This document shows, piece by piece, positions 8,079 through 35,275 of a stretch of DNA of 64,000 nucleotides (its first letter is position 1; every line of letters starts with the position of its first letter). The notes under the pieces are model-generated. The model did no database searches. It saw nothing but the letters and a program-made list of their open reading frames with translations, and was not told the origin of the DNA. Source of the stretch: Escherichia phage UE-S1. The stretch lies in the sequence record ON568341.1, one strand, 5' to 3'. The position numbers were made by a program, and so were the translations under genes.

Positions 8079-11000
8079 TTAAGAACCAATATTTATATTG
8101 CTTTTAGCTAATGAGTTAACTATTTGAACATTTTCTACTGATGCCGTACTCAAAAATATTTGGTCCGAACGTGATGGAATTTCAAATAGTGACCCAAATT
8201 TTGAATTTGGATTTTGTGCAACAATAACAATTGTACTAATATGTCTCCCCAATTGGGAATGTATATAAGTACACAAATCAGTGTAATAGAAACTTTCACC
8301 AAAATCCCAATTATCAACATTAAAATATTCATTTGTTAATGCAATAACATTTTGACGAATTTCATCGTCACTCATAGTACTATTTGGTAATTTAACAACT
8401 TTAAAATCAGCTTTATAGTCTTCAGCAGCACTATTGCCAAACAATGGTAGGTACTCTGCACTATGCCAAATAATACTGTCACTGATGACAATTTTTTGCT
8501 CAACATCTTTGAACATATTTTTCAATTCAACTGATGTAGGTGGTTTTGGGATACTTCCAACTGCATTATTTTTCAACCACACATCAACTTCGGTTTTATA
8601 CGAGTTAGTTAGAACATACATATCAATTAAGTTTGTTCTACTTGGATCAATGCGATTATCGTCAGGTGCATAATGTTTCCAATGGAAGTCAATACTTGTA
8701 CGAGCATTTGTTTTGACTGTGTATTGTGCAGTAACATCTTTATAACCATAGTAATCCAACTTCTGATTCTCATCAGAATTAGTACCCATGTTGTTAATTG
8801 TACGATAAAATGCGAGTTCTGGTGTAACAGTTATGGTGTCATCTGAATATGTCAAATTACTAATTAATTGACCCAAACGATCATTGTTGTTACCAACGGT
8901 TTGTTCGATGAAATAATATTTACCATCATATTTAAAACACACTAAGAATCCAGAACCTTTACTGTACAATCCACTCAATGAGTTAGAACGAATTGCATTA
9001 TTTCGTACAAATTCAGTTCTTTTATATGTATTAGGTTCAGCTAATGCTTGTTCCATCGTATAAGACCAAGATGAATCTAGAAACGTGAATGTATCATTTG
9101 GTAAAGATAGAACTGAAATAGTAAAATCATTATTTTCTTTGAATATCAAAATACCACCATATTTCAATGCATCAGTACCTGACCATTCTGGAACAATTTC
9201 TTTAAATTGGTTTGGTTCCAATGGTATACCATTACTATCTACTTTTCTAGATGTGACAATAATACGAGAGCCATCAAGATATCCATTTTCTTGCTGTATT
9301 GTATCATAAATTTGAAAATCAATATTACTCGTCAGTCCAGAATTGTTAGTACTGGTGGTGTTCGAAGATAAAATTTCAATCTTATCGCTTTGAACAGTGC
9401 CAGTACTAATATCAGTTATTTTTTTGGATGAAACAAAGTAAAATTTCACTTTATCCCCACCAACGAATATATATTCAATACCATTAGCGTCAAATTCCCA
9501 AGTTTCTGCTGTATATTTTACATTTATAACAACCAAAACTTCATGACCATTATACATAATAGTATCATCATTCGTACTTACTTCTACCGGAACCCATGCA
9601 GTTGTTTCTTTGTCATGCACAATGACAAAATCAGTTTTCTTATCCAACATTGCAGAAATAGATTGAACTTCAACGGAATCAAACCTAGTTCTATATGGTA
9701 ATATATAATCAATTGCTTGCATTCTACTTGGTACGGATGTACTTAATACATAAAACCCATTATCTAATACACTAACAATACTTGCCCATACTGTAGTGGT
9801 AGAGTTAGAAAATTTAATCAAAGTACCCACCTGATACGAGCCATATACAGTCCCAGATGAACCCAAAATTCTACCATATGTATTTGTAGTATAATTTGAA
9901 TTATATACAGGCGTCCATGATTGTTGGATTTCAATGCCAATCGTATTGGAAGGGTAAGCTTGATAGCGTTGTATTACCGCATTTTCACCAATCAATGGTT
10001 GAATATTATCAATAACAATGCTGGCATTAGTTTTTGTTGTTGGTAGTAATAGTGACCTATTAAATTTAGTATTTTCTTGATATAATGCCCCGTCATCACT
10101 AAACACATCAGTGTTTTGGTATTTTCCAGTAGGATCATTGATGTCAATAAATCTAGACTGACCACTATAAATTCTATTAATAGCTTTCGACTTAAGCACT
10201 GTATTCCCTAAACTAAGGGGTGCTATATTATAATCTTCACCATTAACAAAGCGGTTTTGTGTATAGTACATTTGTGGTGCACGTGCTTTAATCTGCTCAA
10301 TTGTCTCAGCACTTTGTGCACGATCTGATTCATATTGTAATGAAAAACGTACATCCAACGTACTAGATTCATAACTTGATTGTGTTTTAGTTCGATATGT
10401 ATACTTTACACTTTTATTTTGAATTTCTGATGTTTTAATGTTATACGTTTTACCATTACTGACGCGATACCACACGCGAAAAGTTCCACGCGGCACAACA
10501 CCACTTCTAGAATCTGGATATTTAATTGTTATTTGGTCTTTGTCACGTGTTGAAACAGCAAAAATTGTTTTTAATTGACGGTTAACCGTATTATATGCAA
10601 TACTTTCCATAGATGGTACTTTTGTCCATTTCGCACGCACAATACCATCTTCATTAATTTCTTGAACCCAAACATCAGTTTCGTTTATATTATCAACGTT
10701 TACATCTTGTATTCTATTTTCTTCACGAATATTATATTGATAATCTTGATATGTCAACGTCCCTTGTATAAAATATACAAAAAAACCAGTATTTGGTGAA
10801 CTGAATCCATTACCATCATTTTGATAGACAATATATTTTTGTTCTTGCGGTTCTGGGTGACGTTCCTCAACACCAACGGATGTAATGTCAGGGTTTACCA
10901 CTTCAAATGTCATAGATTCACCATTTACTGTTGCAACAAATGGTATACTTGGTGCAGTCATTGGAATTGTATTCATCCTATACAATTGTCGAGATACACC

Positions 11001-15252: not shown

Positions 15253-17502
15253 TTAGTCAACTATACTATCGTGACGTTTAAGTGCACGGATTACAATTGC
15301 AGCTTGAATTTGTTGTGTAAAAGAACCACCTGCACCAAAATCATGAACGATTTTATTAACACGATAAATTGTTTGATTAAACGTAGTTGGTGTATTAATA
15401 TCCAATACACCAGTGTTATCATTAATTGACACTACTGGTTGTAATTTTAATAATAGATATGCTTCAGATGTTATGTAGTTTGCTACGTGATAATCATCTG
15501 GATTAATTTCCATATCCTCACCATTAATTACTTGCTCTAGATATTGTAAGTACGAGTAATCACTCCATCCTAACCAATATGGATCACCAACTACACGCAT
15601 ATCAAGCTTGCACAAAAAAGGTCTATTGTAATAGTTGTCACGTATTTTACGTCTATCCATTTCATATGTACTACTGTTATCGTTTAGAGAAGCCGATAAC
15701 GTCGTTTCATTATTGGTTGCTTCAGTAGGCATTGTGAATACTTCACCATAACGATGTCCAATCCCATCAGTTCCTTCATCGTTTTCTTCATATGTAGTGA
15801 CATAATCTTCAATATATTGTGGTAACACATTTACTTGATAATTATTATAACGGTCTTGTTCTTCAGCGTTCCCGACCTGCATTTGGTTTTTAGCCAACGT
15901 ATCAATTTCTGACAATAAATCTTGTTGGTCTTTTGTTAACATTCCACCCATATCACGTGTTACACGCAAATCACTTGTTTTTGCCCATGCATCTGGTATA
16001 CTATTATATTGCACACCTTGTATATTCAATTCTTGTGAGTTATGTGTACCAGAATGGTTTGCCACGTCTTGAATTGGCCCTGGGTTACGGGTAGTGGCTA
16101 CGAAAAATTGTTGGTCAAATTTTAAATCCAAATCAATTATCTCACTATTAAGACCACTAAACTGATAATTATAAGTTTTTATATTCAATTTTGGTTTTTG
16201 ATCGATAGGATCTACATATTTTTCCGCATTCTCAAAGAAATATTCAAATGTGAAATTTTCTGGTTGTAAATCAGATTCATGTACAATATCACCTATCTTA
16301 AATTTAACTATATAAAAAATAACTTTATAAACTGAAGTGTTACGATAATTATCAAAACCAATATATTGTTTTATTGGTATAATATTAACAAATTGTCGTA
16401 CACTGGTGCTCTCATCTGCTTGTACTGTACAAGTATCAATAACATCATCAATAATTCTGGATATAGGAGTACTTGGGTTCCATGAAAAGTTTTTAGAACC
16501 TTGGGTTCCACTTTTAGTTGTTCCAGCTTCTGCCATTTGTTTAGAATCATAATTTATAAACAAATCTTGTAAATCAGGAGCAACTTTAAATTCAAAAAAT
16601 TTGCCATCAGATAATTCACCAAATTTATATCTAAGATACCCATATTGTTGGTCAGCCATCTGATTTAATTTATCTTCCAAATCAAAACAGAAATCACCAA
16701 AGTTTTCAGCCGTACAATTAAATGGTTCTTTAAGTGTCCATTCAATATTATCAACCAATGCTGCTCTATTATGAACTAAACTCATAGAATACATCATAGT
16801 ACTTCCACTTTGTGATGCACTAGCCGTTATACTATTAATTTTAACTGACCATCTTCGTGTTGTTTCAGGAATAATTTCAGGGATTCCATTCTTATTAAAA
16901 CCTATGAACTTTAATTCCAATATCAAAGGTAAGTCCATGAATTTATGAAATCTAAGTTTATTACTTAACGATATTAGTTCATCATATAGACTCATACTAT
17001 TATTTTCAGACATATTAAGAACAGCCGTATTGAAACAATAGTTAGTTGTCATTCCAGGTGTGGATGGTCCAGCTTGCGTCATTTGTACACTTGTGATATT
17101 ATATTTTCCACTAACACCACTTTCAGATATAACATGACGCTGCACGTCGGCATCTGGATAAAGCCAAAAATTTTTAAAATCATCCTTATCCAACGCAAAC
17201 AGACAAAAATGCCAAGTTGGATTATCATATTTTAATAGTTTGTTGTTGTATGGTATCACAAATTGACTTAAATCTAAATCTTCATAAACTTGTCCCATAC
17301 CAGCACTCTGTGATGGCAATGACTCAACATTACTAACATTTGCTTTATAGTTATTTTTTGTAATAGCTTTCACGTCATTTTGTAATGTATTAGCGGTAGC
17401 TTTCAAACTATCCAATGAATTAGATGCAGTTGTTTTTGTCTTCTTATTAATACTTGAAATATCATTTTGAAAATTATCAACTGTACTTCGTAAATCTGCC
17501 AT
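15253..17502 (-). CDS. Putative baseplate hub protein (gp27/gpD-like position)
   Basis: 749-aa ORF immediately upstream of the spike gene. Assigned by synteny only. Confidence 0.3.
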   Translation of the reverse strand: MADLRSTVDNFQNDISSINKKTKTTASNSLDSLKATANTLQNDVKAITKNNYKANVSNVESLPSQSAGMGQVYEDLDLSQFVIPYNNKLLKYDNPTWHFCLFALDKDDFKNFWLYPDADVQRHVISESGVSGKYNITSVQMTQAGPSTPGMTTNYCFNTAVLNMSENNSMSLYDELISLSNKLRFHKFMDLPLILELKFIGFNKNGIPEIIPETTRRWSVKINSITASASQSGSTMMYSMSLVHNRAALVDNIEWTLKEPFNCTAENFGDFCFDLEDKLNQMADQQYGYLRYKFGELSDGKFFEFKVAPDLQDLFINYDSKQMAEAGTTKSGTQGSKNFSWNPSTPISRIIDDVIDTCTVQADESTSVRQFVNIIPIKQYIGFDNYRNTSVYKVIFYIVKFKIGDIVHESDLQPENFTFEYFFENAEKYVDPIDQKPKLNIKTYNYQFSGLNSEIIDLDLKFDQQFFVATTRNPGPIQDVANHSGTHNSQELNIQGVQYNSIPDAWAKTSDLRVTRDMGGMLTKDQQDLLSEIDTLAKNQMQVGNAEEQDRYNNYQVNVLPQYIEDYVTTYEENDEGTDGIGHRYGEVFTMPTEATNNETTLSASLNDNSSTYEMDRRKIRDNYYNRPFLCKLDMRVVGDPYWLGWSDYSYLQYLEQVINGEDMEINPDDYHVANYITSEAYLLLKLQPVVSINDNTGVLDINTPTTFNQTIYRVNKIVHDFGAGGSFTQQIQAAIVIRALKRHDSIVD

Positions 17503-17513
17503 GTGTTACTCCA

Positions 17514-17828
17514 TTAGCCTATGTTTCGAGTACCATTAAGATAGTTTTGTACTCTTTGATTTGCTGGTATTCTAATTGTTACTCCACTTTTAAAATTATA
17601 TATAGGATCTTCTCCTAATATATCTGGATTTAACAATGCAAAAATATAATATAGACGTTCATTGCCATACATCTCGTAGGCTAAACGCCAGGGTTGATAT
17701 TCATACTTCAATGGGATCTCATAAAAATCATCAGTATCAGCAGGAACTATATCTCGTGGTAAATTATAACCAAGATACCAAGATTGTTTCACCTTAGCAT
17801 AAGGTGAGTATTGACTATAGTTGGACAT
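17514..17828 (-). CDS. Small baseplate protein with LysM-like segment (gpX/gp53-like position)
   Basis: 104 aa. A LysM-like pattern ending GVTIRIP. Position upstream of hub and spike. Confidence 0.3.
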   Translation of the reverse strand: MSNYSQYSPYAKVKQSWYLGYNLPRDIVPADTDDFYEIPLKYEYQPWRLAYEMYGNERLYYIFALLNPDILGEDPIYNFKSGVTIRIPANQRVQNYLNGTRNIG

Positions 17829-18559
17829 TAAATAAATCCTCCTTTGCGTAATAGTTCACCTCGTTTAAATGCATTGAGGTTAAACGTTTTAGTCATATAA
17901 TCAGATGTCGGTTGTTCTTCAAGTTGTAACATAACTGATATTTTTTGTGGAACCCAAACTTCATCTTGTGGATTCATATATCCAGTACTTCTAAGTTGTT
18001 CGAAGAATTTTCTACTATCCATATCGGATAAATTAAAAGTACTGTCACTACTATTCAAAGGAACTTGAATATAAGAAACATCATTAGGATATGTAAAATT
18101 ATAAGATTTTAAAATTACCGGAATATCATTATATGTGTAACGACCATATCCACTTAAAAGTAAAATTGGTGGTGGTGCACCAGCAATTGCCAATTCGGGG
18201 TTATTAGCAGATGCTGCTTGTCTACCAAAATCCATCAATGAAACCGAACGTATAAAATGAACACATGCCAATGCATACATGGCTTCTGCTGCCGTATTAG
18301 CATAAAATTCACCCTGAATAGTGAAAACCGTATTGGTGGTGTTTTTGTAATTATTATAGTTACTATTGGTATGTATAGGTGACTGTGTTTCATACTGAAT
18401 TGACCTTTGTTCAGTAATTATTGGTGTTACAGTCCAAACCAACCCATTAGTTGGACGCAGAAACGAAAGTAGTGTTGGTTCGGAGCTATCCCCGAAATCA
18501 CCATATACATAGTTAGCACCTGCGGCTTTAGGTCGTAATCGAATTCTACGATCAATCAT
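17828..18559 (-). CDS. Late structural protein (tail/baseplate), unknown function
   Basis: ORF-track frame. Start refined to ATG at 18559 (MIDRRIRL...) with GGAG 9 nt upstream. The track start at 18616 is a GTG inside the promoter region. A TATAAATA box lies upstream. Confidence 0.6.
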   Translation of the reverse strand: MIDRRIRLRPKAAGANYVYGDFGDSSEPTLLSFLRPTNGLVWTVTPIITEQRSIQYETQSPIHTNSNYNNYKNTTNTVFTIQGEFYANTAAEAMYALACVHFIRSVSLMDFGRQAASANNPELAIAGAPPPILLLSGYGRYTYNDIPVILKSYNFTYPNDVSYIQVPLNSSDSTFNLSDMDSRKFFEQLRSTGYMNPQDEVWVPQKISVMLQLEEQPTSDYMTKTFNLNAFKRGELLRKGGFI

Positions 18560-18593
18560 CTTTTGATTCTCCATCATAAGGGAACATTTGATG

Positions 18594-18601
18594 TATTTAT
18601 A
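18594..18601 (-). promoter_or_regulatory. T4-type late promoter TATAAATA
   Basis: Plus strand tatttata, about 35 nt upstream of the refined start at 18559. Confidence 0.5.
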
Positions 18602-18604
18602 CGT

Positions 18605-18633
18605 GGGACAAAACACTTTTTGGTGCTATAATA
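18605..18633 (+). promoter_or_regulatory. Early sigma70-like promoter (GGGACA-N17-TGcTATAAT)
   Basis: GGGACA at 18605-18610 and extended -10 TGCTATAAT at 18625-18633, upstream of gp55. Confidence 0.5.
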
Positions 18634-18689
18634 ACATTGATGGTATAAGGATTGTATCTATTGGATTTAAACATGGAGAGTTGAATATA

Positions 18690-19529
18690 ATGACAAATAG
18701 ACCAAAGCGTAAAAAGTATCTCAATAATGCTGATTTACTTCGTGAAATACAAAAAAGTAAGATTTCATATTGCTGGTTATTAGACAAATCATATAGTATG
18801 TATGATTATATCGTTTTTCATGAGTCAGAAATTACTGCTGAGTTACTTGAAAAAGCAAAAGCAGCACGAATTAAACGACTTAACAATGAAATGCTTGATA
18901 GTATTCGTGCAAAGGAAAATATGAGTGCTAAAAAAGCGAAAGAATATGCAGAAGAAAATAATCTAGTTATTACTGATGTTCCAATTGATGAAGTAGTTAT
19001 TCGTGTTATTACAGATGAACACATCCCACCAGATACTAGAGTTAATTTTGAACCTTTCAAACATTATATCGTAGATAATGAAGGTATTCTTTATGAAGTA
19101 TGTCGCTCTCATTGGAAAGGTGACCTTGAATCTGGGGAATTTAGTACTGTTCATGGTAAAATAACAAATGAACTAGGGAAAATGTTCATTAAACTAGCAG
19201 AGGAAATCTCACATAAATCTAACTATAGAAACTATACATACTTAGATGAAATGATGGGTGATGCAAGAATACAATTAGTTAAAAATGCACTTCTCTTTAA
19301 AGAGAGTATTCTTTATAAAAAAGACAAACCCGCTGTACAACTAAATCCTTTCTCTTACTATACATCATTCGTAAACAATAGTTTTCGTTCAATTTTGAAT
19401 AGTGAGAAAAATGTTCGAAATATACGTGATGATTTACTTGAAATGCATGGCTTTACACCATCACATACACGTCAAATTGAAATTGAATTGAACATGATTG
19501 AAAGGAAAAATGAAGATGGCACTGTTTGA
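18690..19529 (+). CDS. gp55: Late-transcription sigma factor gp55
   Basis: N-terminus RPKRKKYLNNADLLREI parallels T4 gp55 KPKYNYVNNKELLQAI. C-terminal blocks LGKMFIKLAEEISHKSNYRNYT and NPFSYYTSFVNNSFRSIL parallel T4 [22 protein letters not shown] and NPHAYITQACFNAFVQRI. Start refined to ATG 18690. About 90 aa longer than T4 gp55. Confidence 0.75.
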   Translation: MTNRPKRKKYLNNADLLREIQKSKISYCWLLDKSYSMYDYIVFHESEITAELLEKAKAARIKRLNNEMLDSIRAKENMSAKKAKEYAEENNLVITDVPIDEVVIRVITDEHIPPDTRVNFEPFKHYIVDNEGILYEVCRSHWKGDLESGEFSTVHGKITNELGKMFIKLAEEISHKSNYRNYTYLDEMMGDARIQLVKNALLFKESILYKKDKPAVQLNPFSYYTSFVNNSFRSILNSEKNVRNIRDDLLEMHGFTPSHTRQIEIELNMIERKNEDGTV

Positions 19530-20555: not shown

Positions 20556-22703
20556 ATGCTAAACATTACACGTATATCAATGAGGAACTTCTTTTCATTT
20601 GGGAACGCACCACAATCAATAGAATTGAATAGTTCTGATATTTCATTAGTTCTTGGGCAAAATAATGATGCAGTTATTGAAGGTGGTGATAGCACTGGAC
20701 GACGAAATGGAGTAGGGAAAAGTGCTATTATTCAAGGATTAGTTTTTGGCTTATTTGGGAAAAGTATTGGTAATGATATTAAAATTCCCAACCTAGTCAA
20801 CAAAACTAATGGCAAAAATTGTGAAGTAGTTATAGAGTTTGAAAAAGATGGTGTGCAATATATAGTTGAGCGTGGGAGAAGTCCTACGTATTTCAATTTT
20901 ATCACATTAGGAAAAGATAATAAGATTGAAGATGAATCGAGAGGTGAAAAAAAAGACACACAAGAAGATTTGAATGAAATTCTTGGAATATCTCAATTAT
21001 TATTTGAACATATTGTAGTTCTTAATGCGAACGTAGAACCGTTTTTGGCTTTATCATCTCAAAAACAACGTGATATGATAGAAGAACTTCTTGGAATAAC
21101 ACAGTTGACTGAAAAAGCTGAAATTCTAAAGGAGATGTACAAGGATACTAAACGTTTAGCCGAACAAGAAAAGTTCAAAAATGAAACTGTGGCTGCAAGC
21201 AATGAACGCATTCAAAAAAGTATTGAAGTACTTCAAGAACAGGCTAACCAATTTGAGATTGATAAAAGTAATAGAGTATCTAAGCTAAATGAAGAGTTGA
21301 ATATATATAAAACTTTAGATTTCAATGATCTCTACCAAGCTGCTGAAGAGAAAGAGAAAGCTCTTATTCATAACGCAAAGCGTGGTGAAATTGAACGCCG
21401 TGTACAAGAGTTGGCTTTAAAATATGATGCTTATGAACGTGAACTTGAAACGTCCAAGCGAGTGTTAAATCTAAGCATTGATAATTTAAAAACGATTGAT
21501 ATTAGTTCGGAATTGGAAAATCACAAGGAGTTGGAAATATGGAAACAGTTAGAGGCTATTCTTAAAGAGAATAATAATCAAAAACGTTTCAAAGAACAAA
21601 AGCTCAACTCACTAAAAGTTGCGTTGAATGGATATAAATGTTCAATTAATACTGAAATCGATAAATTATCAACAGTTGAAAGCAGTAAATGTCCACTTTG
21701 TATGTCTGATTTGGAACATAACGAACATACATCTTCAATTAAAGACAAAATTCAAAGTTCTATTAGTGATCTTCAAACCAAAATTGATAGTTCTTCTTCA
21801 GAAATTGAAACATTACTTAAAGAAATTGAGAGTATTGAGATTTTTGATATGCCACCTAAACCAGTGACATACTATAATACACTTTCAGAAGCACAAATGC
21901 ATGAACATAAGCTTCAAGAACTGATTAAAAAGAGCGAAGAAGAACCAATAAACATCTATGCTAACGAACTTATGTCATCATATGATGAACTTAACTCATA
22001 TGAACTAATGGAAGTACCAGATACATTAAACAAGTACGAAGTTAAAGAGCTAGAAATGACCGTAAGCTCGTTATCACAGCAATTAGAACGTGAATTGAAG
22101 ACTACTAACACTTTTATTAGCCAAATTAACACCCTTAAGACAGATTCTTTAGTTACAATAGACTATAGTGACTATAATAATCTTGATAAAATGTCAAATC
22201 ACCAAGATTTTTTGGTTAAATTACTATTGAACAAGGATTCTTATGTCCGTAAGCGTATTATTGAGCAAAATATCTCATATTTGAATACACGACTTCAGTA
22301 TTATATCGATATGTGCGGTTCTGAGCACAATGTTGTCTTTTTGAATGATTTGAGTGTTGAAATTGAGAAAAGTGGGCAGTACTTTGACTATAAACAGCTT
22401 AGTAGGGGTGAGCGTACAAGGGTAAACATCGCATTATCTTGTGCTTTCCGTGATACATATGAGTCATTATACCAAAGTATTAATATTCTTATCATTGATG
22501 AGATGATTGACCAAGGTCTTGACTCAAGTGGTGTTCTACGTGTGTGGTCTATCTTCCAAGATATGGCTGCTGTACGTGGTAAGAATGTTTATGCTATTTC
22601 CCACAGAGAAGAGTTACTTTCTAAGACTGAAAAAATCCTCAAAGTTGTTAAAGAGGACGGATTCAGTACTGTTGAATATGCAACTCTTGATGATGTTTTC
22701 TAA
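20556..22703 (+). CDS. gp46: Recombination endonuclease subunit gp46 (Rad50/SbcC-like ATPase)
   Basis: Walker A GRRNGVGKS near the N-terminus, long central coiled-coil, C-terminal LIIDEMIDQGLD. Confidence 0.85.
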   Translation: MLNITRISMRNFFSFGNAPQSIELNSSDISLVLGQNNDAVIEGGDSTGRRNGVGKSAIIQGLVFGLFGKSIGNDIKIPNLVNKTNGKNCEVVIEFEKDGVQYIVERGRSPTYFNFITLGKDNKIEDESRGEKKDTQEDLNEILGISQLLFEHIVVLNANVEPFLALSSQKQRDMIEELLGITQLTEKAEILKEMYKDTKRLAEQEKFKNETVAASNERIQKSIEVLQEQANQFEIDKSNRVSKLNEELNIYKTLDFNDLYQAAEEKEKALIHNAKRGEIERRVQELALKYDAYERELETSKRVLNLSIDNLKTIDISSELENHKELEIWKQLEAILKENNNQKRFKEQKLNSLKVALNGYKCSINTEIDKLSTVESSKCPLCMSDLEHNEHTSSIKDKIQSSISDLQTKIDSSSSEIETLLKEIESIEIFDMPPKPVTYYNTLSEAQMHEHKLQELIKKSEEEPINIYANELMSSYDELNSYELMEVPDTLNKYEVKELEMTVSSLSQQLERELKTTNTFISQINTLKTDSLVTIDYSDYNNLDKMSNHQDFLVKLLLNKDSYVRKRIIEQNISYLNTRLQYYIDMCGSEHNVVFLNDLSVEIEKSGQYFDYKQLSRGERTRVNIALSCAFRDTYESLYQSINILIIDEMIDQGLDSSGVLRVWSIFQDMAAVRGKNVYAISHREELLSKTEKILKVVKEDGFSTVEYATLDDVF

Positions 22704-22713
22704 TTAAAAGATA

Positions 22714-22738
22714 AAGGGAGCCTTAGCTCCCTTTTTTT
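22714..22738 (+). terminator. Bidirectional rho-independent terminator
   Basis: AAGGGAGC-ctta-GCTCCCTT followed by TTTTTT. Overlaps the stop of the convergent minus-strand gene. Confidence 0.6.
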
Positions 22739-23214
22739 ACATCAACCATATTTAATTTACCGTCCTTAATCAGCTTTCTAGCTTGTTTTGCACGAGTAGT
22801 AGTGTTACTGCCAGGGACAACTCCGAACCCTTCCAGAATCTCGTTTTGCTGCGTTGCTGGGAGCCTTTTAAATTTATTAGTATCCACTGTTAGTGCCGTG
22901 TGATGTATAACTTGCTCTTCTGGTGGAATATTATTGTTCTTTTCAAGGTAGTCAGCAAGGTTGCGTAGTACTTCATGCAATGGCTTATCTGTTAAATGAC
23001 TAAGACAGCGTTTAAATGAATTTGCAACCCTTCCTTCCCATCCATTCACCTCATTTTGAAGAACCTGTCTACAATGTTGATTTCCACCATGATAGTGATC
23101 CAGAACTGGTTTAGTTATTTTTATGCCTATGATGGGGTCAATGCCATTTTGTTTATTTAGCAATTCAGTTCGATAGTTTGCAGCATCCTTACTATCTTTT
23201 AATCTTTTTTTCAT
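22723..23214 (-). CDS. gp49: Endonuclease VII-like Holliday-junction resolvase (T4 gp49 family)
   Basis: LDHYH, KFKRLPATQQNEILEGFG and the overall pattern parallel T4 endo VII LDHDH and EFSRLGKEEMMAEMLQRGF. The first Cys pair of the T4 zinc site appears absent. Confidence 0.55.
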   Translation of the reverse strand: MKKRLKDSKDAANYRTELLNKQNGIDPIIGIKITKPVLDHYHGGNQHCRQVLQNEVNGWEGRVANSFKRCLSHLTDKPLHEVLRNLADYLEKNNNIPPEEQVIHHTALTVDTNKFKRLPATQQNEILEGFGVVPGSNTTTRAKQARKLIKDGKLNMVDVKKGS

Positions 23215-23305
23215 AATTCCTCACCAAACTATTTGTCATCACAATATTTATAGATTAGTTATTTGCAATATTTTAAGTACTTAATGAATATTTTATAAAA
23301 ATAGT

Positions 23306-23333
23306 GAGACAACTTTAAAATTTGTGCTATAAT
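23306..23333 (+). promoter_or_regulatory. Early sigma70-like promoter (GAGACA-N16-TGcTATAAT) driving a non-coding locus
   Basis: GAGACA at 23306-23311 and TGCTATAAT at 23325-23333. Same architecture as the promoters of gp55, gp32, primase, rnh and the clamp-like gene. Confidence 0.5.
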
Positions 23334-23339
23334 ATTTGT

Positions 23340-23810
23340 TGTAGTAATGACAATCCTGTTGAATGCAGAAATGCATATAAATGAGAACCTGATCCTATCG
23401 AAAATGTAGATGGCAGATGAGCAGTTCAACAGTGCGATGAGCAGAAGAAACCCGTCAGATGTGGGCATAGTTTGAACCCCTCACGGCAATGCGGCTCAAT
23501 AAAGAACTCCGATAAGCATACAGAGAGTTCCTAGATAGACATATAAGGATCGCACCTTACCAGATTTGCTAAGGGAGTTTATTAAGTGATTTTAATAAAC
23601 AGCCTGAAGTTTGATTGTATAGACTTTCAGGTGAGTGTCAGGATGATTAAGACTGACGACCGTTGCATATGACCGTGATAGGGAGAAACCGAGCAACCCG
23701 CTTCCGTTTGCGATTGATCTTTTTACAATATAGATCCGTCCAAAATTCACGATACAATAAATGCTGAAACCATCAGCGTCAAGAAATAGAGACTTCATTG
23801 TCTCTTTTTT
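23340..23810 (+). ncRNA. Candidate structured non-coding RNA (about 470 nt), unknown class
   Basis: Bounded by a promoter and a terminator. No plus-strand ORF of 60 aa or more. Locally GC-enriched with several short stem-loops. No RBS-led ORF. Confidence 0.3.
23788..23810 (+). terminator. Rho-independent terminator closing the non-coding locus
   Basis: AGAGAC-ttcatt-GTCTCT followed by TTTTT. Confidence 0.45.
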
Positions 23811-24040
23811 ATTGTCTTCATTCCCCTGCGGGGGGATGAAAATGTCCTCAACAAATCCCGTCAAGTATTAAATCTTTTAAAGTTCTTTATAATTAATTTA
23901 ATGAAATGAATATGAGTTACGTAGTAACGAATATTCTTCAGCTAACGAATGAAATGAGTTAGATGAATCCAATAATATTAAAATTAATTCTTCCATAATT
24001 CAATTCAAATAATTCTGTAGTTTAATGAAAAAAAAAACCA

Positions 24041-24067
24041 GCAACAATGTGCTGGTCGTGTGGGATT
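24041..24067 (-). terminator. Rho-independent terminator of the minus-strand late operon
   Basis: On the minus strand: CCAGCA-cattgt-TGCTGG followed by TTTTTTTTT. Confidence 0.6.
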
Positions 24068-24276
24068 TAGTGCTTCTCGTTTTGTTTTTTAATTTTTTTA
24101 TTAAAAGACTTAACTAATAAGTCTCTATCTATTAATGGCATATTAAGAAGTGTTCCGTAATCAATATTATCCATATACACAGAACACTCCATTAGTGCAT
24201 TTTTGATTTCTGACTTATTCAGTTCTATCTCCTTCAGTACTTCTTGTATTTCTTCAGGAGATGACTGGAGAAGCAT
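24067..24276 (-). CDS. Small hypothetical protein (69 aa)
   Basis: ORF abutting the upstream 278-aa gene (stop and start overlap), followed by a terminator. Confidence 0.45.
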   Translation of the reverse strand: MLLQSSPEEIQEVLKEIELNKSEIKNALMECSVYMDNIDYGTLLNMPLIDRDLLVKSFNKKIKKQNEKH

Positions 24277-25112
24277 TACTCGAAAAAATGACTAGGATCA
24301 TATTTTAGTCCATCAATTTCCCATTGATGATTACATCCATCACACTCAACTTCCATACTATGCGATACTCCAATTTCAAGTACTTCATCCATTTTTTCAC
24401 GAATTAGTTTAAGAACTCCTTTTGATTGTTGTCCAAGCCACTCATTAATGAATTCTTTTTCAACTACTTCATCACCATCTGGAGTGATGATTTTTGCAAT
24501 AACTCCACCAATCATATCAAAGTTTAGTTGTGCCATATTTTCAAATACTTCAGAAAATATTTTTACTTTTTCGTCTTGTTCAATCTCAGCAGTTTCTAGA
24601 AACTTAGTTTTCTGCTGCTCACTGAACATACGCTCAGCAAACGATGAATATTCTTTCCATGTTAGTGGTCTAAACTCTAAACGTAGTCCATTATCTAAAT
24701 CAATAGATGGGATTTCTTCGAATGCTTGTGCAGTTTCAAGAAGATATGATAGATTACGTTCAAAACGACCTTCTTTTTCACATTCAGGACATACAGCGTT
24801 AATATCATATGTTTCTTCTTTAGATGCAACTTTAATAGCAATAAGAAGCATTTCAACGTCATTTACATATAACTCATCAGCATCAATAACATTAGGAACA
24901 CAGTTTTCAATGACACGTGATACTGCATCGCCGTTTAGTAACATATCTGGTGTATTGAGTGTCATTTCATCACGTGCACTACGTGCACAAACGCCACATT
25001 TGACACCTTTTGGACCTAAAACTCCGTCTTTATAAGGAATAATGCCGTTAGTAACTAATTTTGTACTGATCTCTTCAATTTTAGTGTACTTAGCAAGTGG
25101 ATTCATAGCCAT
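24276..25112 (-). CDS. Late protein with three CxxC zinc-ribbon motifs, unknown function
   Basis: 278 aa. CGVCARS, CPECEKEG and CDGCNHQWE motifs. GGAG RBS. TATAAA-like late boxes in the divergent region. Confidence 0.7.
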   Translation of the reverse strand: MAMNPLAKYTKIEEISTKLVTNGIIPYKDGVLGPKGVKCGVCARSARDEMTLNTPDMLLNGDAVSRVIENCVPNVIDADELYVNDVEMLLIAIKVASKEETYDINAVCPECEKEGRFERNLSYLLETAQAFEEIPSIDLDNGLRLEFRPLTWKEYSSFAERMFSEQQKTKFLETAEIEQDEKVKIFSEVFENMAQLNFDMIGGVIAKIITPDGDEVVEKEFINEWLGQQSKGVLKLIREKMDEVLEIGVSHSMEVECDGCNHQWEIDGLKYDPSHFFE

Positions 25113-25203
25113 TTTTGTTAAATCTCCATGTAATAAATGTGTTTATAGTATTTATGACCCCAATAAAAATTAAATAAACCATTTTTTATAATCACAATAG
25201 TTT

Positions 25204-25211
25204 TATAAATA
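25204..25211 (+). promoter_or_regulatory. T4-type late promoter TATAAATA
   Basis: Exact TATAAATA 33 nt upstream of the start at 25244. Confidence 0.55.
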
Positions 25212-25243
25212 TTTCTATAATACATTTATTAAAAGGGAATGTT

Positions 25244-27448
25244 ATGGCTGGAAATACAAGTGATTACCTACTCCAGCAGTTGGTTAATCAAACTAAAGAT
25301 AACAACGATAGTTTGAGTGCTATACGTGAGTTATTGGCTGAAAATATAAAAAATGACAGAAAGAAGTCTGGTTCTAAAAGTGGAAAACGCAATAGTAGCA
25401 ATTCATCAAGTACTGGAAATCGTGGTTCACGAACTAGTAACAAGAGTGCTGATGGTAAAGAATTTGGTAAAATATTCAAATCATTATCATCGGAAGTATC
25501 AAATGTTGGTAAAACTATGATGAGCACTTCTGCAAATGTTAGTAATGTTGTCAATTCAATGGGAATGAGTGCATCTTCATTTGCTGGAACATTGTCAATG
25601 ATTCCTGGTCCTGTTGGTGCAGCAGCAACTGCTTTTAAATTGGTCGCTGACGTTGGTATGGCAGTATATAATGTATTAAACGCACAACTTGAAGTTTATA
25701 ATAGAATAAACAGTGCTGGTGTTGCCCTATCTGAAGGTTATGGTTCCATATTAAAAGGTGCAGGTGCATCAATGATGAGTGTTGATGCATTTGGTGAAGC
25801 ATTACAAACACATAGTTCTGTTGTTGCACAATTGGATGGAGCATATGGTGATGGTGTTTCTACCTTTGGTAAATTATTGGGTACTGTACAACAGGCACAA
25901 AATCAATTAGGCTTATATGGAGTATCACAGAAAACATTAACTGATTTAACTGCACGTAATATTAAATTCCAAAAGCAATTTGGTGGAAGAGAAATGTTAC
26001 GTAGTATGGATCAAGCAAAAAGCACTGAACAGTTTATTATGAGCATGACTAAGTTCAGTAAAAGTATGGGTGAATCAGTTGATGCACTATTAAATAAAAC
26101 ACAAAACTTAGATAAATCATTAGACACACGTTCAATGCAAATAGCATTACAAAACTATTCTGGATTATCTGGTAAAGCAGCGGTTGAAACATCAAAAGCA
26201 TTTAACGAAGCTGCTGCAAGTATGGGTGATGCGGGTGCTGATTTTCTACGTTTGATTTCACATCGTTTGACGATTGGTGGTGTACCAGATGATTTATTGA
26301 CTCCAGTACTTAATCAATTCGCCGACTTAGGTGAGAACTTGGTACGTAGTGGCGTTACTGATTCACAAGAAATTCGTCGCCAGCAGATAGAATTTGTTAA
26401 AAAGAACAAAGAATTAATAAAGCAAGATTTATTACATCAGATTAATTTAGGAAACACTACTGCTGCAATCTTCAACCAACAACTGCTTGATATGGAAGCT
26501 GCGATAAACGATCCTAAGAGTCAACCAGCAGATAAACTAACACAATTCACTGATAGATTCAATAGATGGATTAGTAAAGAATTTTCTGCACCATTTAATA
26601 AAATGTACGCAGATACTCAAAATTCTATTGCCGATTACCTTACTGATATTGCTGATCGAACCGATGGTGCATGGGAGTTTATTGGTCAGTTAGCACTTGA
26701 TGGGTTTGGTTTAGTTCCAATTGCGAAAGATGCAGTTGCGTATTTGGATAGGATTGGTGGTGAGTTTGAGCAGTGGTTAGAAGGTTTAGGTACTGAAATT
26801 TTTGGTAGTGGATACAATAAAGTTTCAGAATCATTTAATAATTTCATGAATAACTTAATGGATTTACCTGGTAAATTATGGGATTCAGTCAAAGGTTGGT
26901 TTGGTGGTTCAAGTGATAAAGTAAAAGTTGATAATAACCCTGTTACTGATGGTGCTGAAAAAGTTAACAGCTACTTCGAAGAAAAAATGAATTCATTTGG
27001 TGATTATATTTCTAATTCATTTGATCATTTTTTAAAATGGAATTCAAGCAGGAACTTCAAACAGCCCAAACCATTAGATGAATCTGTAGCAGAAAAACTT
27101 ATTAGTAGTGGTCTTGAAAATAAACCAAGTGCAACTGCTAGAATAGAAAAATCTGAACATGTTGCACCTTATGTTACTATTACTCCTAAAACATTCGATA
27201 AATCAGCATGGGGTCCGAATGAACCACCGATTCAAGCACAACCTGACGATTATGAGTCAATGAAAGCGATGATAAATAATGGTAGTAGTATGGCAAATGC
27301 TAATAATAATGCCACAATTTCAGAAGACATGAAAGAATTACTTAAAAAACTTGCTGATGTTAACGAGCAATCCCTATCTGCTGTACAACAGACAAATAAC
27401 TATCTAAGAACTATCTCTGAAAACACTCAAGGTGAGAGAAACAGTTAA
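25244..27448 (+). CDS. Late virion-associated protein (734 aa), unknown function
   Basis: Late promoter. Immediately upstream of and co-oriented with the portal gene. Ser/Gly-rich low-complexity N-terminal region. Confidence 0.7.
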   Translation: MAGNTSDYLLQQLVNQTKDNNDSLSAIRELLAENIKNDRKKSGSKSGKRNSSNSSSTGNRGSRTSNKSADGKEFGKIFKSLSSEVSNVGKTMMSTSANVSNVVNSMGMSASSFAGTLSMIPGPVGAAATAFKLVADVGMAVYNVLNAQLEVYNRINSAGVALSEGYGSILKGAGASMMSVDAFGEALQTHSSVVAQLDGAYGDGVSTFGKLLGTVQQAQNQLGLYGVSQKTLTDLTARNIKFQKQFGGREMLRSMDQAKSTEQFIMSMTKFSKSMGESVDALLNKTQNLDKSLDTRSMQIALQNYSGLSGKAAVETSKAFNEAAASMGDAGADFLRLISHRLTIGGVPDDLLTPVLNQFADLGENLVRSGVTDSQEIRRQQIEFVKKNKELIKQDLLHQINLGNTTAAIFNQQLLDMEAAINDPKSQPADKLTQFTDRFNRWISKEFSAPFNKMYADTQNSIADYLTDIADRTDGAWEFIGQLALDGFGLVPIAKDAVAYLDRIGGEFEQWLEGLGTEIFGSGYNKVSESFNNFMNNLMDLPGKLWDSVKGWFGGSSDKVKVDNNPVTDGAEKVNSYFEEKMNSFGDYISNSFDHFLKWNSSRNFKQPKPLDESVAEKLISSGLENKPSATARIEKSEHVAPYVTITPKTFDKSAWGPNEPPIQAQPDDYESMKAMINNGSSMANANNNATISEDMKELLKKLADVNEQSLSAVQQTNNYLRTISENTQGERNS

Positions 27449-33679: not shown

Positions 33680-35275
33680 GTGTTAGAAGAAATCAAGAAG
33701 TTTTTATCAGAGAAAAATGTTCGTGGTGTTAAATCTGCTCTGCAAGCAAAATCTGTATACATTGAATTCCTGCGAGAGATGTTTGGTGATATCGATCTTA
33801 ATGAAATGATTTATATGGTATTGAATGATATTACTTCAGTGCCGAATGCTGAATGTGGTGACAAAGCTAAGTTTATAAGTATTACCGAAGGATATTCTTA
33901 CAAGTGCAATAAACCATTTCAAGGAAAAGGAAAATGCCTTATCTGTTGCTCCGCAGTTGCTAGGAAACGTAAAGAAACTTACAAAGAAAAAACTGGTTAT
34001 GATAACCCGGCACAGAATCCAGAAATTCAAAAGAAAATAGGGTATACCAATGAACAACGTTATGGCACTCGTATTGCTCAACAATCTGAACAAGTAAAGC
34101 AGAAATCAATAGAAACTAATATTAAAAAGTATGGTGTTGTTCATCCATCACAGTTGGAAAGTAATAAACAGCAACGTTTACAAACGGTACAAGAAAAGTA
34201 TGGTATCAATAATGTATGGCAACTTAATAAAGGTCTTAGTGCACGTTATGAACAGTTTAAAACACGATTTGAACAGGATGGTAAATTTACTCTTTTAAGT
34301 GATGAATCCCATTATGATAATAGCAATGACGCAACTCATGCAATCATGCACTGGAAATGTAATGAATGTGGTAATGAGTTTGATAAAGTTGCTCTTTGCT
34401 TACGCTGCCCTAAGTGTGAACCATATTCATCCAGTACTGAAGAAGTAAATCTTTATAATTACATTACCTCTATCTATAGTGGTGTGGTTATTCAAAACAG
34501 CCGCAACATCATCAAAGGTAATGAGATTGATATCTTCATCCCAGAATTGAAACTTGGTATTGAGTTCAATGGTGAGTATTGGCATCGTGATGAAGTTCGT
34601 GGTAAAAACTATCATCAATCCAAATACTTCAAAATGAAGGAAGCAGGATACAAACTTATCACTATCTATAGTAATGAATGGTCAAATAAAACTGAAATTG
34701 TTAAGAATCGTTTGAAAAGTTTGATTAGTGTGGATAGTAAAATCTATGCTCGTAAGTGTGAAGTTAGATTGGTTGCCCATGAAGAATGTGATAAATTTTT
34801 GTATGAACATCATATTCAAGGACCATGCCAATCATCAATCAAACTTGGACTTTACTATAATGATGATTTGGTTGCTTTGATGACATTTGGTGCACCACGA
34901 TTTAACAAGCAGTATGAATATGAATTACTGCGTTATTGTTCTAAAGGAACAGTTGTTGGGGGTGCATCGAAACTGTTAAAACATTTTGAACGTATGTATC
35001 TTCCTAAATCTCTTCTTTCATACGCCGATATGAACTGGAGTACTGGTAATTTGTATGAAAAAATTGGTTTTACTTTAGAAGAAGTAACTCAACCTGGTTA
35101 TTTTTACTATGATAGAAAAAACGAAGTTGTTTATTCTCGCCATCAATGCCAAAAACAAAAACTTATTAAAAAATATAATTTTGATAGTTCTATGACAGAG
35201 AAGGAAATGACAAAAGAATTAGGATACTTTAGAATCTATGATTGTGGTAACTTAGTTTATAAAAAGATTTACTAA
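33680..35275 (+). CDS. Free-standing homing-endonuclease-like protein: zinc ribbons, tandem KYG repeats, PD-(D/E)xK (Vsr/DUF559-like) core and GNAT-like C-terminal domain
   Basis: Cys pairs CLICC and CLRCPKCE. Four tandem repeats of about 20 aa. Nuclease core EIDIFIPELKLGIEFNGEYWH. C-terminal VVGGASKLL ... LYEKIGF resembles acetyltransferase motifs. Start set to GTG 33680 after GGAG. Sits after gp23, the position of segD in T4. Confidence 0.5.
   Translation: MLEEIKKFLSEKNVRGVKSALQAKSVYIEFLREMFGDIDLNEMIYMVLNDITSVPNAECGDKAKFISITEGYSYKCNKPFQGKGKCLICCSAVARKRKETYKEKTGYDNPAQNPEIQKKIGYTNEQRYGTRIAQQSEQVKQKSIETNIKKYGVVHPSQLESNKQQRLQTVQEKYGINNVWQLNKGLSARYEQFKTRFEQDGKFTLLSDESHYDNSNDATHAIMHWKCNECGNEFDKVALCLRCPKCEPYSSSTEEVNLYNYITSIYSGVVIQNSRNIIKGNEIDIFIPELKLGIEFNGEYWHRDEVRGKNYHQSKYFKMKEAGYKLITIYSNEWSNKTEIVKNRLKSLISVDSKIYARKCEVRLVAHEECDKFLYEHHIQGPCQSSIKLGLYYNDDLVALMTFGAPRFNKQYEYELLRYCSKGTVVGGASKLLKHFERMYLPKSLLSYADMNWSTGNLYEKIGFTLEEVTQPGYFYYDRKNEVVYSRHQCQKQKLIKKYNFDSSMTEKEMTKELGYFRIYDCGNLVYKKIY

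Follow-up and report, generated by a model that had tools for sequence, protein, structure and literature searches.

Positions 23905–23967 of the 64-kb stretch of Escherichia phage UE-S1 DNA analysed here (record ON568341.1; hereafter the window) form a conserved, covarying and strand-biased two-hairpin element that is part of a non-coding RNA (ncRNA) cassette. The element lies within 23880–24040, a segment that a preliminary description had singled out for its AT-richness and its short direct repeats, which were read there either as iteron-like, marking an origin or packaging signal, or as simple spacer DNA. Sequence comparison across genera instead identifies 23905–23967 as a member of a conserved element that is the constant downstream partner of a multi-copy ncRNA in jumbo phages of the 121Q/GAP32/CBB/BF type (Rak2-like), and its likeliest role would be that of an RNA leader, a processing site or a protein-binding platform.

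Conservation and covariation of the two-hairpin element

The window comes from an Asteriusvirus-like jumbo coliphage, with ~92% identity to PBECO4, 121Q, phAPEC6 and G17 (megablast of 22700–25300), whose genomes are about 350 kb in size. In G17 and 121Q, the flagged segment falls inside an unannotated gap of ~850 nt (window 23215–24066). A distant blastn search with this gap showed that ~23370–23882 is 70–73% identical to DNA of very distant jumbo phages, including GAP32, CBB, Serratia phage BF, Yersinia phage fHe-Yen9-04, Xanthomonas phage XbC2, Erwinia phages and Salmonella phage Munch, and the same query matched 4–6 places per genome. The flagged segment itself could be aligned in close relatives only, with the exception of a 19-nt exact match, TAACGAATGAAATGAGTTA, which is found in Munch amid otherwise unalignable DNA.

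We then read the downstream DNA in 8 distant phages, together with copies drawn from IMG/VR by pattern scans. All distinct copies examined share one order of parts: a weak intrinsic terminator, a G/C hairpin (UUCAUUCCCC-UGCG-GGGGGAUGAA), a box (CCUCAACAAAUCUCGUCAG) with a TATAAT-like hexamer after it, an AT-rich linker that is short and varies in length, Box A (AAUGAAUUGAG), hairpin 1 (HP1), a second linker (ACGAAAAUUCUU), hairpin 2 (HP2) and Box B (GGCWAAUC). The element shares the strand of the large ncRNA and lies 60–110 nt further downstream, with the terminator, the G/C hairpin and a CGUCA(A)G box in between, and the window copy conforms to this arrangement (Table 1).

A covariance model (R1) was built from 21 elements of other genera, with no Asteriusvirus sequence included, on a MAFFT alignment (A3) with the structure assigned by hand. 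The best match of R1 in the 64 kb was 23902–23970 on the plus strand (25.3 bits, E about 0.01 by a rough calibration), spanning the full model (1–84) with all pairs standard, while the next matches reached 12–13 bits at E above 2. Over 60 loci, the matches of R1 all lay next to a copy of the large RNA, apart from one stand-alone copy; with E up to 1, there was no match in the pattern-scan loci that lack the large RNA, nor in the PA5oct locus. The former loci stem from a 17-base IMG/VR pattern scan, which returned many loci without the large RNA and from which true copies were sorted by nhmmer and R1. The stand-alone copy (positions 8801–8873 of locus L062, IMG/VR contig 3300042256_000013) lies between two genes, ~400 nt downstream of a complete cassette, and consists of a partial HP1, a full HP2 and Box B; the element therefore does not always have the large RNA immediately before it.

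The window copy folds as two abutting hairpins (−15.9 kcal/mol, z = −4.1; RNAfold). An alignment of eight Asteriusvirus genomes has 86% invariant columns over 23900–23970, compared to 71% in the linker that precedes the element (23880–23899) and 35% in the AT-rich filler that follows it (23971–24027). This filler carries a 12-nt deletion in JNE01 and Turkey5 and is unalignable in other genera, so the earlier reading of the region as spacer holds for the filler, with its 14 gap columns, but fails for the element. Across copies, the hairpin loops are either of a GNA/GNNA type (GUA, GUCA, GAA, GUAA, GGA) or 11–12 nt long, opening with G and closing with A, and the parts conserved in sequence are Box A, the ACGAA-AUUCUU linker and these G...A-closed loops. 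No intrinsic terminator was listed within 23900–23970 on either strand; the bases after HP1 are UUCAG and those after HP2 are UCCAAUAA.

The stems covary. In a MAFFT alignment that includes the Asteriusvirus rows, five of the seven HP2 pairs change on both sides and 86.7% of cells pair, a level reached by none of 500 shuffles, and slid controls remained at or below 40% paired. The 5-bp core of HP2 is retained in 27 of 28 aligned sequences, as CAUUC/GAAUG, CAAUC/GAUUG, CAUAC/GUAUG or CUAAC/GUUAG; ph0011 loses one C-G pair of the stem and gains the adjacent pair, and a G-to-U change in Turkey5 makes the extended HP2 stem perfect. For the whole element, 93.5% of cells are paired on A3, with double changes in 7 pairs, and a model-fitted alignment, which leans towards the structure, gives 95.3% paired and double changes in 16 of 21 pairs. 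The upper stem of HP1 (P1b) differs by lineage yet always pairs (GUUAC, GUUUGUU, GUUAAGUAC, AAUUAUGAAUAAC and GAUUCAUU), and the basal stem (P1a) of Asteriusvirus is one base pair longer through the insertion of an A on the 5' side together with an A-to-T change on the 3' side. The 1-nt insertion present in JNE01 and Turkey5 falls exactly in the HP1 loop.

Wobble pairs appear on the plus strand, as U.G in P1a of EJP2 and as G.U in P1b of Hallingskeid, EJP2 and Yen904; similarly, where the 5' arm of the G/C hairpin reads UUUAUU or UUCGUU, the changes form U.G and G.U pairs on the plus strand only. Because these wobbles would be A.C mismatches on the minus strand, the plus strand is favoured; the upstream RNA and, in other copies, the genes after the element are encoded on this strand too.

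Table 1 Features of the cassette and its surroundings, in window coordinates
Feature	Position	Strand	Remarks
Two-hairpin element	23905–23967	+	63 nt: 12-nt Box A, HP1, abutting HP2
Box A, AAUGAAUAUGAG	23905–23916	+	Homologue of AAUGAAUUGAG of all other genera; first rAAyGAAnUGAr copy
HP1	23908–23936	+	Bipartite hairpin
HP1 basal stem P1a, GAAUAU/AUAUUC	23908–13 with 23931–36	+	
HP1 internal loop, tandem GA/GA	23914–15 and 23929–30	+	
HP1 upper stem P1b, GUUAC/GUAAC	23916–20 with 23924–28	+	
HP1 triloop, GUA	23921–23	+	
HP2	23937–23967	+	Directly abuts HP1; UUCA-G-CUAAC / GUUAG-A-UGAA, one G.A mismatch
HP2 loop, GAAUGAAAUGA	23947–23957	+	11 nt; holds repeat copy 2 (23948–23957)
Promoter, TGAGACA-N16-TGCTATAAT	23305–23333	+	Precedes the ~470-nt structured ncRNA
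Promoter and ~470-nt structured ncRNA	23305–23811	+	Ends at the weak intrinsic terminator
Weak intrinsic terminator of the ncRNA	23788–23805 plus T6	+	6-bp hairpin
G/C hairpin, UUCAUUCCCC-UGCG-GGGGGAUGAA	23817–23840	+	3' arm nearly invariant
Conserved box ending CCUCAACAAAUCCCGUCAAGUAUUAAA	up to 23879	+	Follows the G/C hairpin (context 23817–23879)
AT-rich linker	23880–23899	+	10% GC; joins the conserved box to the element
AT-rich filler	23971–24027	.	16% GC, poorly conserved, indel-rich, 14 gap columns
Intrinsic terminator of the baseplate-hub operon	24026–24057	minus	Stem 24057–24036, then T run; annotated in G17
Endonuclease VII	22723–23214	minus	One flank of the gap
69-aa open reading frame and baseplate hub gene	24067–25112	minus	Other flank of the gap

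The repeats noted in the preliminary description can be understood from this architecture. The flagged segment is indeed AT-rich (21.7% GC for 23880–24040 against a window mean of 34.1%), placing it in the lowest 0.66% of the 161-nt windows, and it is correctly located between a gene-free conserved locus and a minus-strand intrinsic terminator. The 10-mer AATGAAATGA is really present at 23900–23909 and 23948–23957, a spacing of 48 nt, and its claimed extension by (A/G)T is also found (AATGAAATGAAT and AATGAAATGAGT); however, there are just two copies and no array, and Tandem Repeats Finder (23500–24300), a check that had been proposed with the claim, reported no array in the segment. With a third copy at 33800, the window contains 3 copies compared to 0.88 expected, a number reached in 7 of 100 shuffles. 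The exact 10-mer repeat is within chance expectation: a 10-nt exact direct repeat occurs in 218 of 2000 dinucleotide shuffles of the segment (11%) and in 42 of 798 161-nt windows of the 64 kb.

Copy 1 (23900–23909) is lineage-specific, reading AATTAAATGA in 121Q/G17, AAGAAATGA in fEgEco12 and TAAAATGA in JNE01; its first five bases vary among close relatives, and its last five (23905–23909) belong to the conserved Box A. Copy 2 (23948–23957) is invariant across the eight Asteriusvirus genomes and recurs exactly in Munch. Both 10-mers are by-products of the element, the first through its overlap with Box A and the second as part of the HP2 loop. In the same region, the density of A[TC]GA[AG] pentamers, a pattern picked after inspection of the sequence, reaches its maximum for the whole window (8 in 75 nt; mean 0.44).

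A degenerate 12-mer, rAAyGAAnUGAr, occurs twice per element across genera. In most elements, Box A scores 9–10 of 11 and one hairpin loop 10–11 of 11, and only 0.4% of random 40-nt windows score 10. In other genera, as in 121Q paralogue b, HP1 carries the loop copy; in the Asteriusvirus copy linked to the endonuclease VII gene (endoVII), HP1 is reduced to a GUA triloop and the HP2 loop holds the motif. Two predicted-exposed copies of the 12-mer are therefore a conserved trait, with the exact identity of the 10-mers as a lineage detail on top, and the short repeats ATGAGTTA and TAACGAAT (two of each) reflect the same internal resemblance of HP1 and HP2. Lack of conservation in relatives had been named as the observation that would speak against the repeats, and the comparison gave the opposite result, with copy 2 conserved and the pair formed by Box A and the loop motif kept in degenerate form across genera. 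Because of this conservation, the repeats do mark something functional, yet this is a structured element and not a set of iterons.

The ncRNA cassette and its genomic contexts

The large RNA upstream of the element is itself structured. RNAalifold predicted 70 pairs from 18 copies, 35 of them with compensatory changes, and nhmmer found at least three copies per genome, at ~193, 248 and 327 kb in 121Q and at ~175, 259 and 336 kb in Serratia phage BF; the window holds one copy. A spacing of 55–85 kb between cassettes was seen in these two phages and in IMG/VR contig 3300012988_000001 (108, 188 and 270 kb), much of which is conserved synteny of collinear genomes. With a weight matrix built from the ‘Promoter 1’ sites of CBB (PMC5259590, Table S6), the best site in the window is 23305–23333 (25.7 bits), directly before the large RNA. 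The authors of the CBB study placed the Promoter 1 class mostly upstream of DNA-synthesis genes (PMC5259590). The four top sites of the window, on the plus strand at 18604, 23305, 52020 and 62819, form a promoter family, TGrGACA-N16-TGnTATAAT, of this same class.

The G/C hairpin and its box are present behind every copy of the large RNA and always lie between it and the element, and their exact pattern had 0 matches in 185,579 bacterial and archaeal genomes. CGTCAAG occurs twice in this part of the window, at 23777–23783 in the 3' end of the large RNA and at 23859–23865 after the G/C hairpin, with CGTCAG at both places in other genera; from these sequences, the two copies seem to have changed in concert and could mark processing sites or a shared binding site. 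Inside the large RNA, a period-13 tandem repeat of 2.2 copies (TAAGGGAGTTTAA, 23570–23598) overlaps a conserved GCUAAGGGAG block.

A search of Rfam 15 gave no match at gathering score in the whole window, and only sub-threshold matches (E of at least 0.24) in 23150–24150, with a similar outcome for the Serratia phage BF copy; tRNA and tmRNA genes were likewise not found in the window. PA5oct ncRNA002, a 451-nt RNA supported by RNA-seq (PMC7318152), and ncRNA001 of the same phage were considered as homologues of the large RNA and rejected, as nhmmer at maximum sensitivity found nothing. Both the element and the large RNA are undescribed in Rfam, in GenBank annotations and in the literature searched, where we found only the CBB promoter predictions.

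What follows the element divides the copies into two contexts. In the paralogues not linked to endoVII whose downstream DNA was read, Box B is followed within 4–8 nt by the Shine-Dalgarno sequence and start codon of a plus-strand gene (BF_0349, CBB_350, XbC2_347, Yen904 g349, and 121Q genes 416 and 517). The endoVII-linked copy, in every lineage including the window, has no plus-strand gene after the element, only filler and a convergent terminator, whose hairpin (CCAGCA...UGCUGG) is kept in all such copies. A downstream Shine-Dalgarno sequence and start codon thus separates the two contexts and does not define the family.

A variant cassette was observed at ~335.8 kb in Serratia phage BF (positions 6480–6620 of locus L020) and at 336,865–336,902 in CBB. 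It lacks a terminator after the large RNA, and its HP2 hairpin falls between the two boxes of a consensus sigma-70 promoter, which reads TTGACT-17-TAAAAT in Serratia phage BF and has TACACT in CBB. The CBB version was listed by its authors as the ‘RpoD-like promoter’ Porf_524 (PMC5259590, Table S5). This promoter is a paralogue of the HP2 region, reading AGAAAATCC-TTGACT-(hairpin CTTGC-TTCA-GCAAG)-TACACT, and it stands in the corresponding place, behind the G/C hairpin and an HP1 whose loop is GAACGAAGUGA; it differs in its consensus −35 and −10 boxes, neither of which is present in the window copy or in most others.

Within the AT-rich linker, a TATAAT lies at 23887–23892, which is absent from ph0011, and T4-type late promoters with one mismatch lie on the plus strand at 23888 (TATAATTA) and on the minus strand at 23891 (TATAAAGA); all of these are candidate promoters. 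The late-promoter consensus tested (TATAAATA, ~6–7 nt upstream of the start) was weakly enriched over 32 copies (14 compared to 8.1 ± 2.2) with no fixed position, and enrichment of promoter motifs between the CGUCAG box and Box A was weak or absent. Exact T4-type late boxes are found elsewhere in the window, on the plus strand at 25204, 31088, 32297 and 42934 and on the minus strand at 23252 and 12563, 30–50 nt upstream of start codons; the box at 25204 precedes a virion structural-protein gene and the one at 23252 (minus) precedes endonuclease VII. The annotated neighbours of the locus are SbcCD, endonuclease VII, the 69-aa open reading frame, the baseplate hub, a structural protein and the portal.

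Proposed role and competing explanations

The explanation we favour, and hold to be probable while leaving considerable room for doubt, is that the conserved two-hairpin element of the ncRNA cassette acts as a plus-strand RNA platform for recognition, processing or stabilisation. The element would function as RNA, transcribed either by read-through of the weak ncRNA terminator or from the −10-like (TATAAT-like) box upstream, and would fold into two coaxially adjacent hairpins in which both copies of the 12-mer motif stay unpaired, to be presented to a protein or to another RNA. Situated at the boundary of the ncRNA unit and the sequence that follows, such a platform could define or stabilise RNA ends or condition the translation of the next gene. 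The window copy would then be the 3' portion of a non-coding transcript that runs through the filler (23971–24027) into the convergent terminator.

Several points weigh against an RNA platform. The element is conserved in the window copy and its orthologues even though no gene follows there, which a role as a leader alone cannot explain. An intrinsic terminator separates the ncRNA from the element, and both the transcription of the element and the 3' end of the ncRNA are predicted from sequence. Two copies, SerBF_b and CBB_eVII, show C.A in P1b, a combination that on the minus strand would read as G.U, and single-stranded DNA would accommodate the covarying stems and the G.T wobbles equally well. 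Many of the aligned sequences are orthologues or paralogues of one another, so independent compensatory events are few, about 3–4 for HP2 as we judge from its stem variants, and the rough calibration of the R1 E-values must also be counted here.

Taken as one undescribed unit, the cassette consists of a replication-class promoter, a 470-nt RNA, a leaky terminator, an invariant G-run hairpin, AT-rich DNA and the twin hairpin, and a different function can be built on these parts, in which each cassette is an R-loop-type replication origin, like T4 oriF/oriG or ColE1, with the structured RNA arising from the replication-class promoter. A persistent RNA-DNA hybrid would prime DNA synthesis, and its formation or resolution would be aided by the G-run hairpin, by the AT-rich DNA and by hairpins in the displaced plus strand. 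The wobbles of the plus strand fit a displaced DNA strand as well, and C-GAA-G and C-GNA-G loops form very stable DNA mini-hairpins, which we count in favour of such an origin. It would also account for the several copies per genome, 55–85 kb apart, for the conservation of the element even without a following gene, and for the position of the region in the lowest 0.66% of the window for GC. The ncRNA promoter, in addition, is the best site in the window of a class located mostly upstream of DNA-synthesis genes (PMC5259590). Against this, the terminator separates the RNA from the AT-rich DNA, the promoter (23305–23333) is about 550 nt away, in most copies 4–8 nt separate the element from a ribosome-binding site, conservation is lowest in the AT-rich filler, and the copy spacing is mostly synteny of collinear genomes. 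Moreover, neither the skew nor any other replication signal has its centre here: the minimum of the cumulative skew is at ~18 kb, where gene orientation switches. This GC-skew minimum (~17000–19000), with orientation apparently changing from minus to plus as judged from the skew profile and from the open reading frames from 19.5 kb on, was read as an effect of transcription orientation and not as a sign of an origin. On balance, we regard an R-loop origin as unlikely, though deserving of some weight. The fuller proposal that the cassettes are replication origins in which the RNA serves as a ColE1-RNA-II-like primer, the twin hairpin stabilises or processes the hybrid and the AT-rich stretch is the site of unwinding and priming appears improbable.

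The remaining alternatives place the function outside a structured RNA, or deny one. The HP2 region could be a rightward promoter, TGAAATG-N16-TAATAT at 23950–23978 (TTGACA-N17 in other genera), producing a small RNA antisense to the baseplate operon here and transcribing the downstream gene elsewhere. A generic scan does list a plus-strand promoter at 23949–23976, a −10-like hexamer is kept at a constant 16-nt spacing among Asteriusvirus variants (TAATAT, TATATT, TATAAA, TATAAT), Mimasvirus and Eneladusvirus copies carry TTGACA, and the L020 paralogue of Serratia phage BF, equivalent to Porf_524 of CBB, is a consensus sigma-70 promoter listed by the CBB authors. However, when tested for the Promoter 1 class (a TGrrACr −35-like box, 16 nt and an extended −10, TGnTATAAT), the site at 23950 has no TGn and scores −3.9 bits (rank 147 of 127,944) compared to 25.7 for the ncRNA promoter. 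Furthermore, TTGACA is not conserved (TAGACA in Munch-like phages, CAGCTA here) while the hairpin is, most copies have a poor −10 hexamer (CAAATA, CTCAAT, GAAAAG), one that would also run into the ribosome-binding site, and TAnnnT is common in DNA of 16% GC; a promoter at HP2 is accordingly a doubtful proposition. That the segment is plain spacer with chance repeats, merely separating two convergent transcription units, agrees with the chance-level 10-mer repeat and with the behaviour of 23971–24027 as neutral filler, but is contradicted for 23905–23967, where 86% of columns are invariant, a model from other genera recognises the sequence and the stems covary, which makes this reading very improbable for the segment. 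We attach even less likelihood to a small protein gene on the minus strand (23996–23898, 32 aa), although its equivalent is annotated in fEgEco12 as g341 and a core (...NSSNSFHSLAEEYSLL...) is shared: the N-termini are wholly different (ATG in the window and fEgEco12 with different sequence, TTG elsewhere in JNE01), the C-terminus is cut short by the 1-nt loop insertion of JNE01 and Turkey5, the frame is impossible in genera where a plus-strand gene follows at once, and the shared core is the conserved element in translation. Nor is an iteron-type origin or a packaging (pac/terminus) signal credible. There are two direct repeats in AT-rich DNA, and the filler, at 16% GC, has the composition of an unwinding region, but it is the least conserved part, the two 10-mers form neither an array of 17–22-bp units nor a tandem register, no initiator or terminase gene is adjacent, and the orthologous locus lies in mid-genome (195,601–196,428 of 374,733 bp) in fEgEco12, whose termini have been mapped with 20,993-bp terminal repeats (PMC13070987). 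The flagged segment is neither an iteron array, a packaging site nor a gene.

Smaller candidates were also tried and rejected. An 18-codon open reading frame on the plus strand (23906...) is likewise frameshifted by the 1-nt insertion in JNE01 and Turkey5 and its ends are unconserved, and a mini-open reading frame in Box A (AUG AAU UGA) has a first codon that varies among copies (ATG, TTG, GTG, CTG, TCG, ACG, TAG). The loop motif can pair with the 5' arm of the G/C hairpin in the window copy (GAAUGAA with UUCAUUC), but inspection by eye showed no covariation among the copies of the Serratia phage BF type, and a pairing between Box B and the large RNA (GAUUUGC) showed, also by eye, no covariation with the Asteriusvirus Box B.

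Relation to known systems and significance

The closest architectural analogues are the put RNA of phage HK022, the RNase III sites of T7 and R-loop origins, and the element could not be assigned to any of these. HK022 put RNA is a cis-acting processive antiterminator made of two adjacent stem-loops. It resembles the element in its length (~60–85 nt), in its two stem-loops with little or no spacer, in its internal loops, and in being a phage sequence downstream of a promoter, where the element would likewise act in cis. There is, however, no similarity in sequence or by model (no Rfam match), the element is located after a terminator whereas put precedes it, and only a convergent terminator follows the window copy.

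The T7 RNase III sites (R1.1) and 5' stabiliser hairpins, which define the ends of RNAs and stabilise them, are similar in that an intergenic hairpin with an internal loop stands between an upstream unit and the next ribosome-binding site. The HP1 of the window, at only 11 bp, is nevertheless too short for a canonical substrate, and its tandem GA/GA(A) loop is not of the T7 type. With T4 oriF/oriG and ColE1 RNA II, the cassette shares a promoter-made non-coding transcript beside AT-rich unwindable DNA, the presence of several copies per genome and a G-run element after the RNA; the T4 origins are not known to include a conserved structured RNA of 470 nt or a terminator ahead of the unwinding element, and here the covarying hairpins abut ribosome-binding sites. 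Iterons, finally, are also direct repeats in AT-rich DNA, but they comprise at least three units of 17–22 bp in helical register, compared to the two 10-mers found here, one in a hairpin loop and the other unconserved, with no Rep gene.

These results bear on the annotation of jumbo-phage genomes. In GenBank, the cassette is either unannotated or overlaid by spurious small coding sequences; those annotated as ‘hypothetical protein’ over the large RNA or the element include 121Q gene 516, ph0011 01640, fEgEco12 g340 and g341, and calls in JNE01 and Turkey5. As their frames and ends are unconserved, they are probably miscalls, and the open-reading-frame calls in the gap should go.

The flagged 160 nt are thus unremarkable as repeats, yet they lead to an unannotated and strongly constrained non-coding cassette that is common to several genera of 350-kb jumbo phages, namely Asteriusvirus, Mimasvirus, Eneladusvirus and the Munch-like phages. 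With its 63 nt, clear stems and two exposed copies of the motif, the twin hairpin offers a compact handle on what reads the cassette, on how the large RNA is kept apart from downstream messages, and on whether the cassette is an expression unit or an origin.

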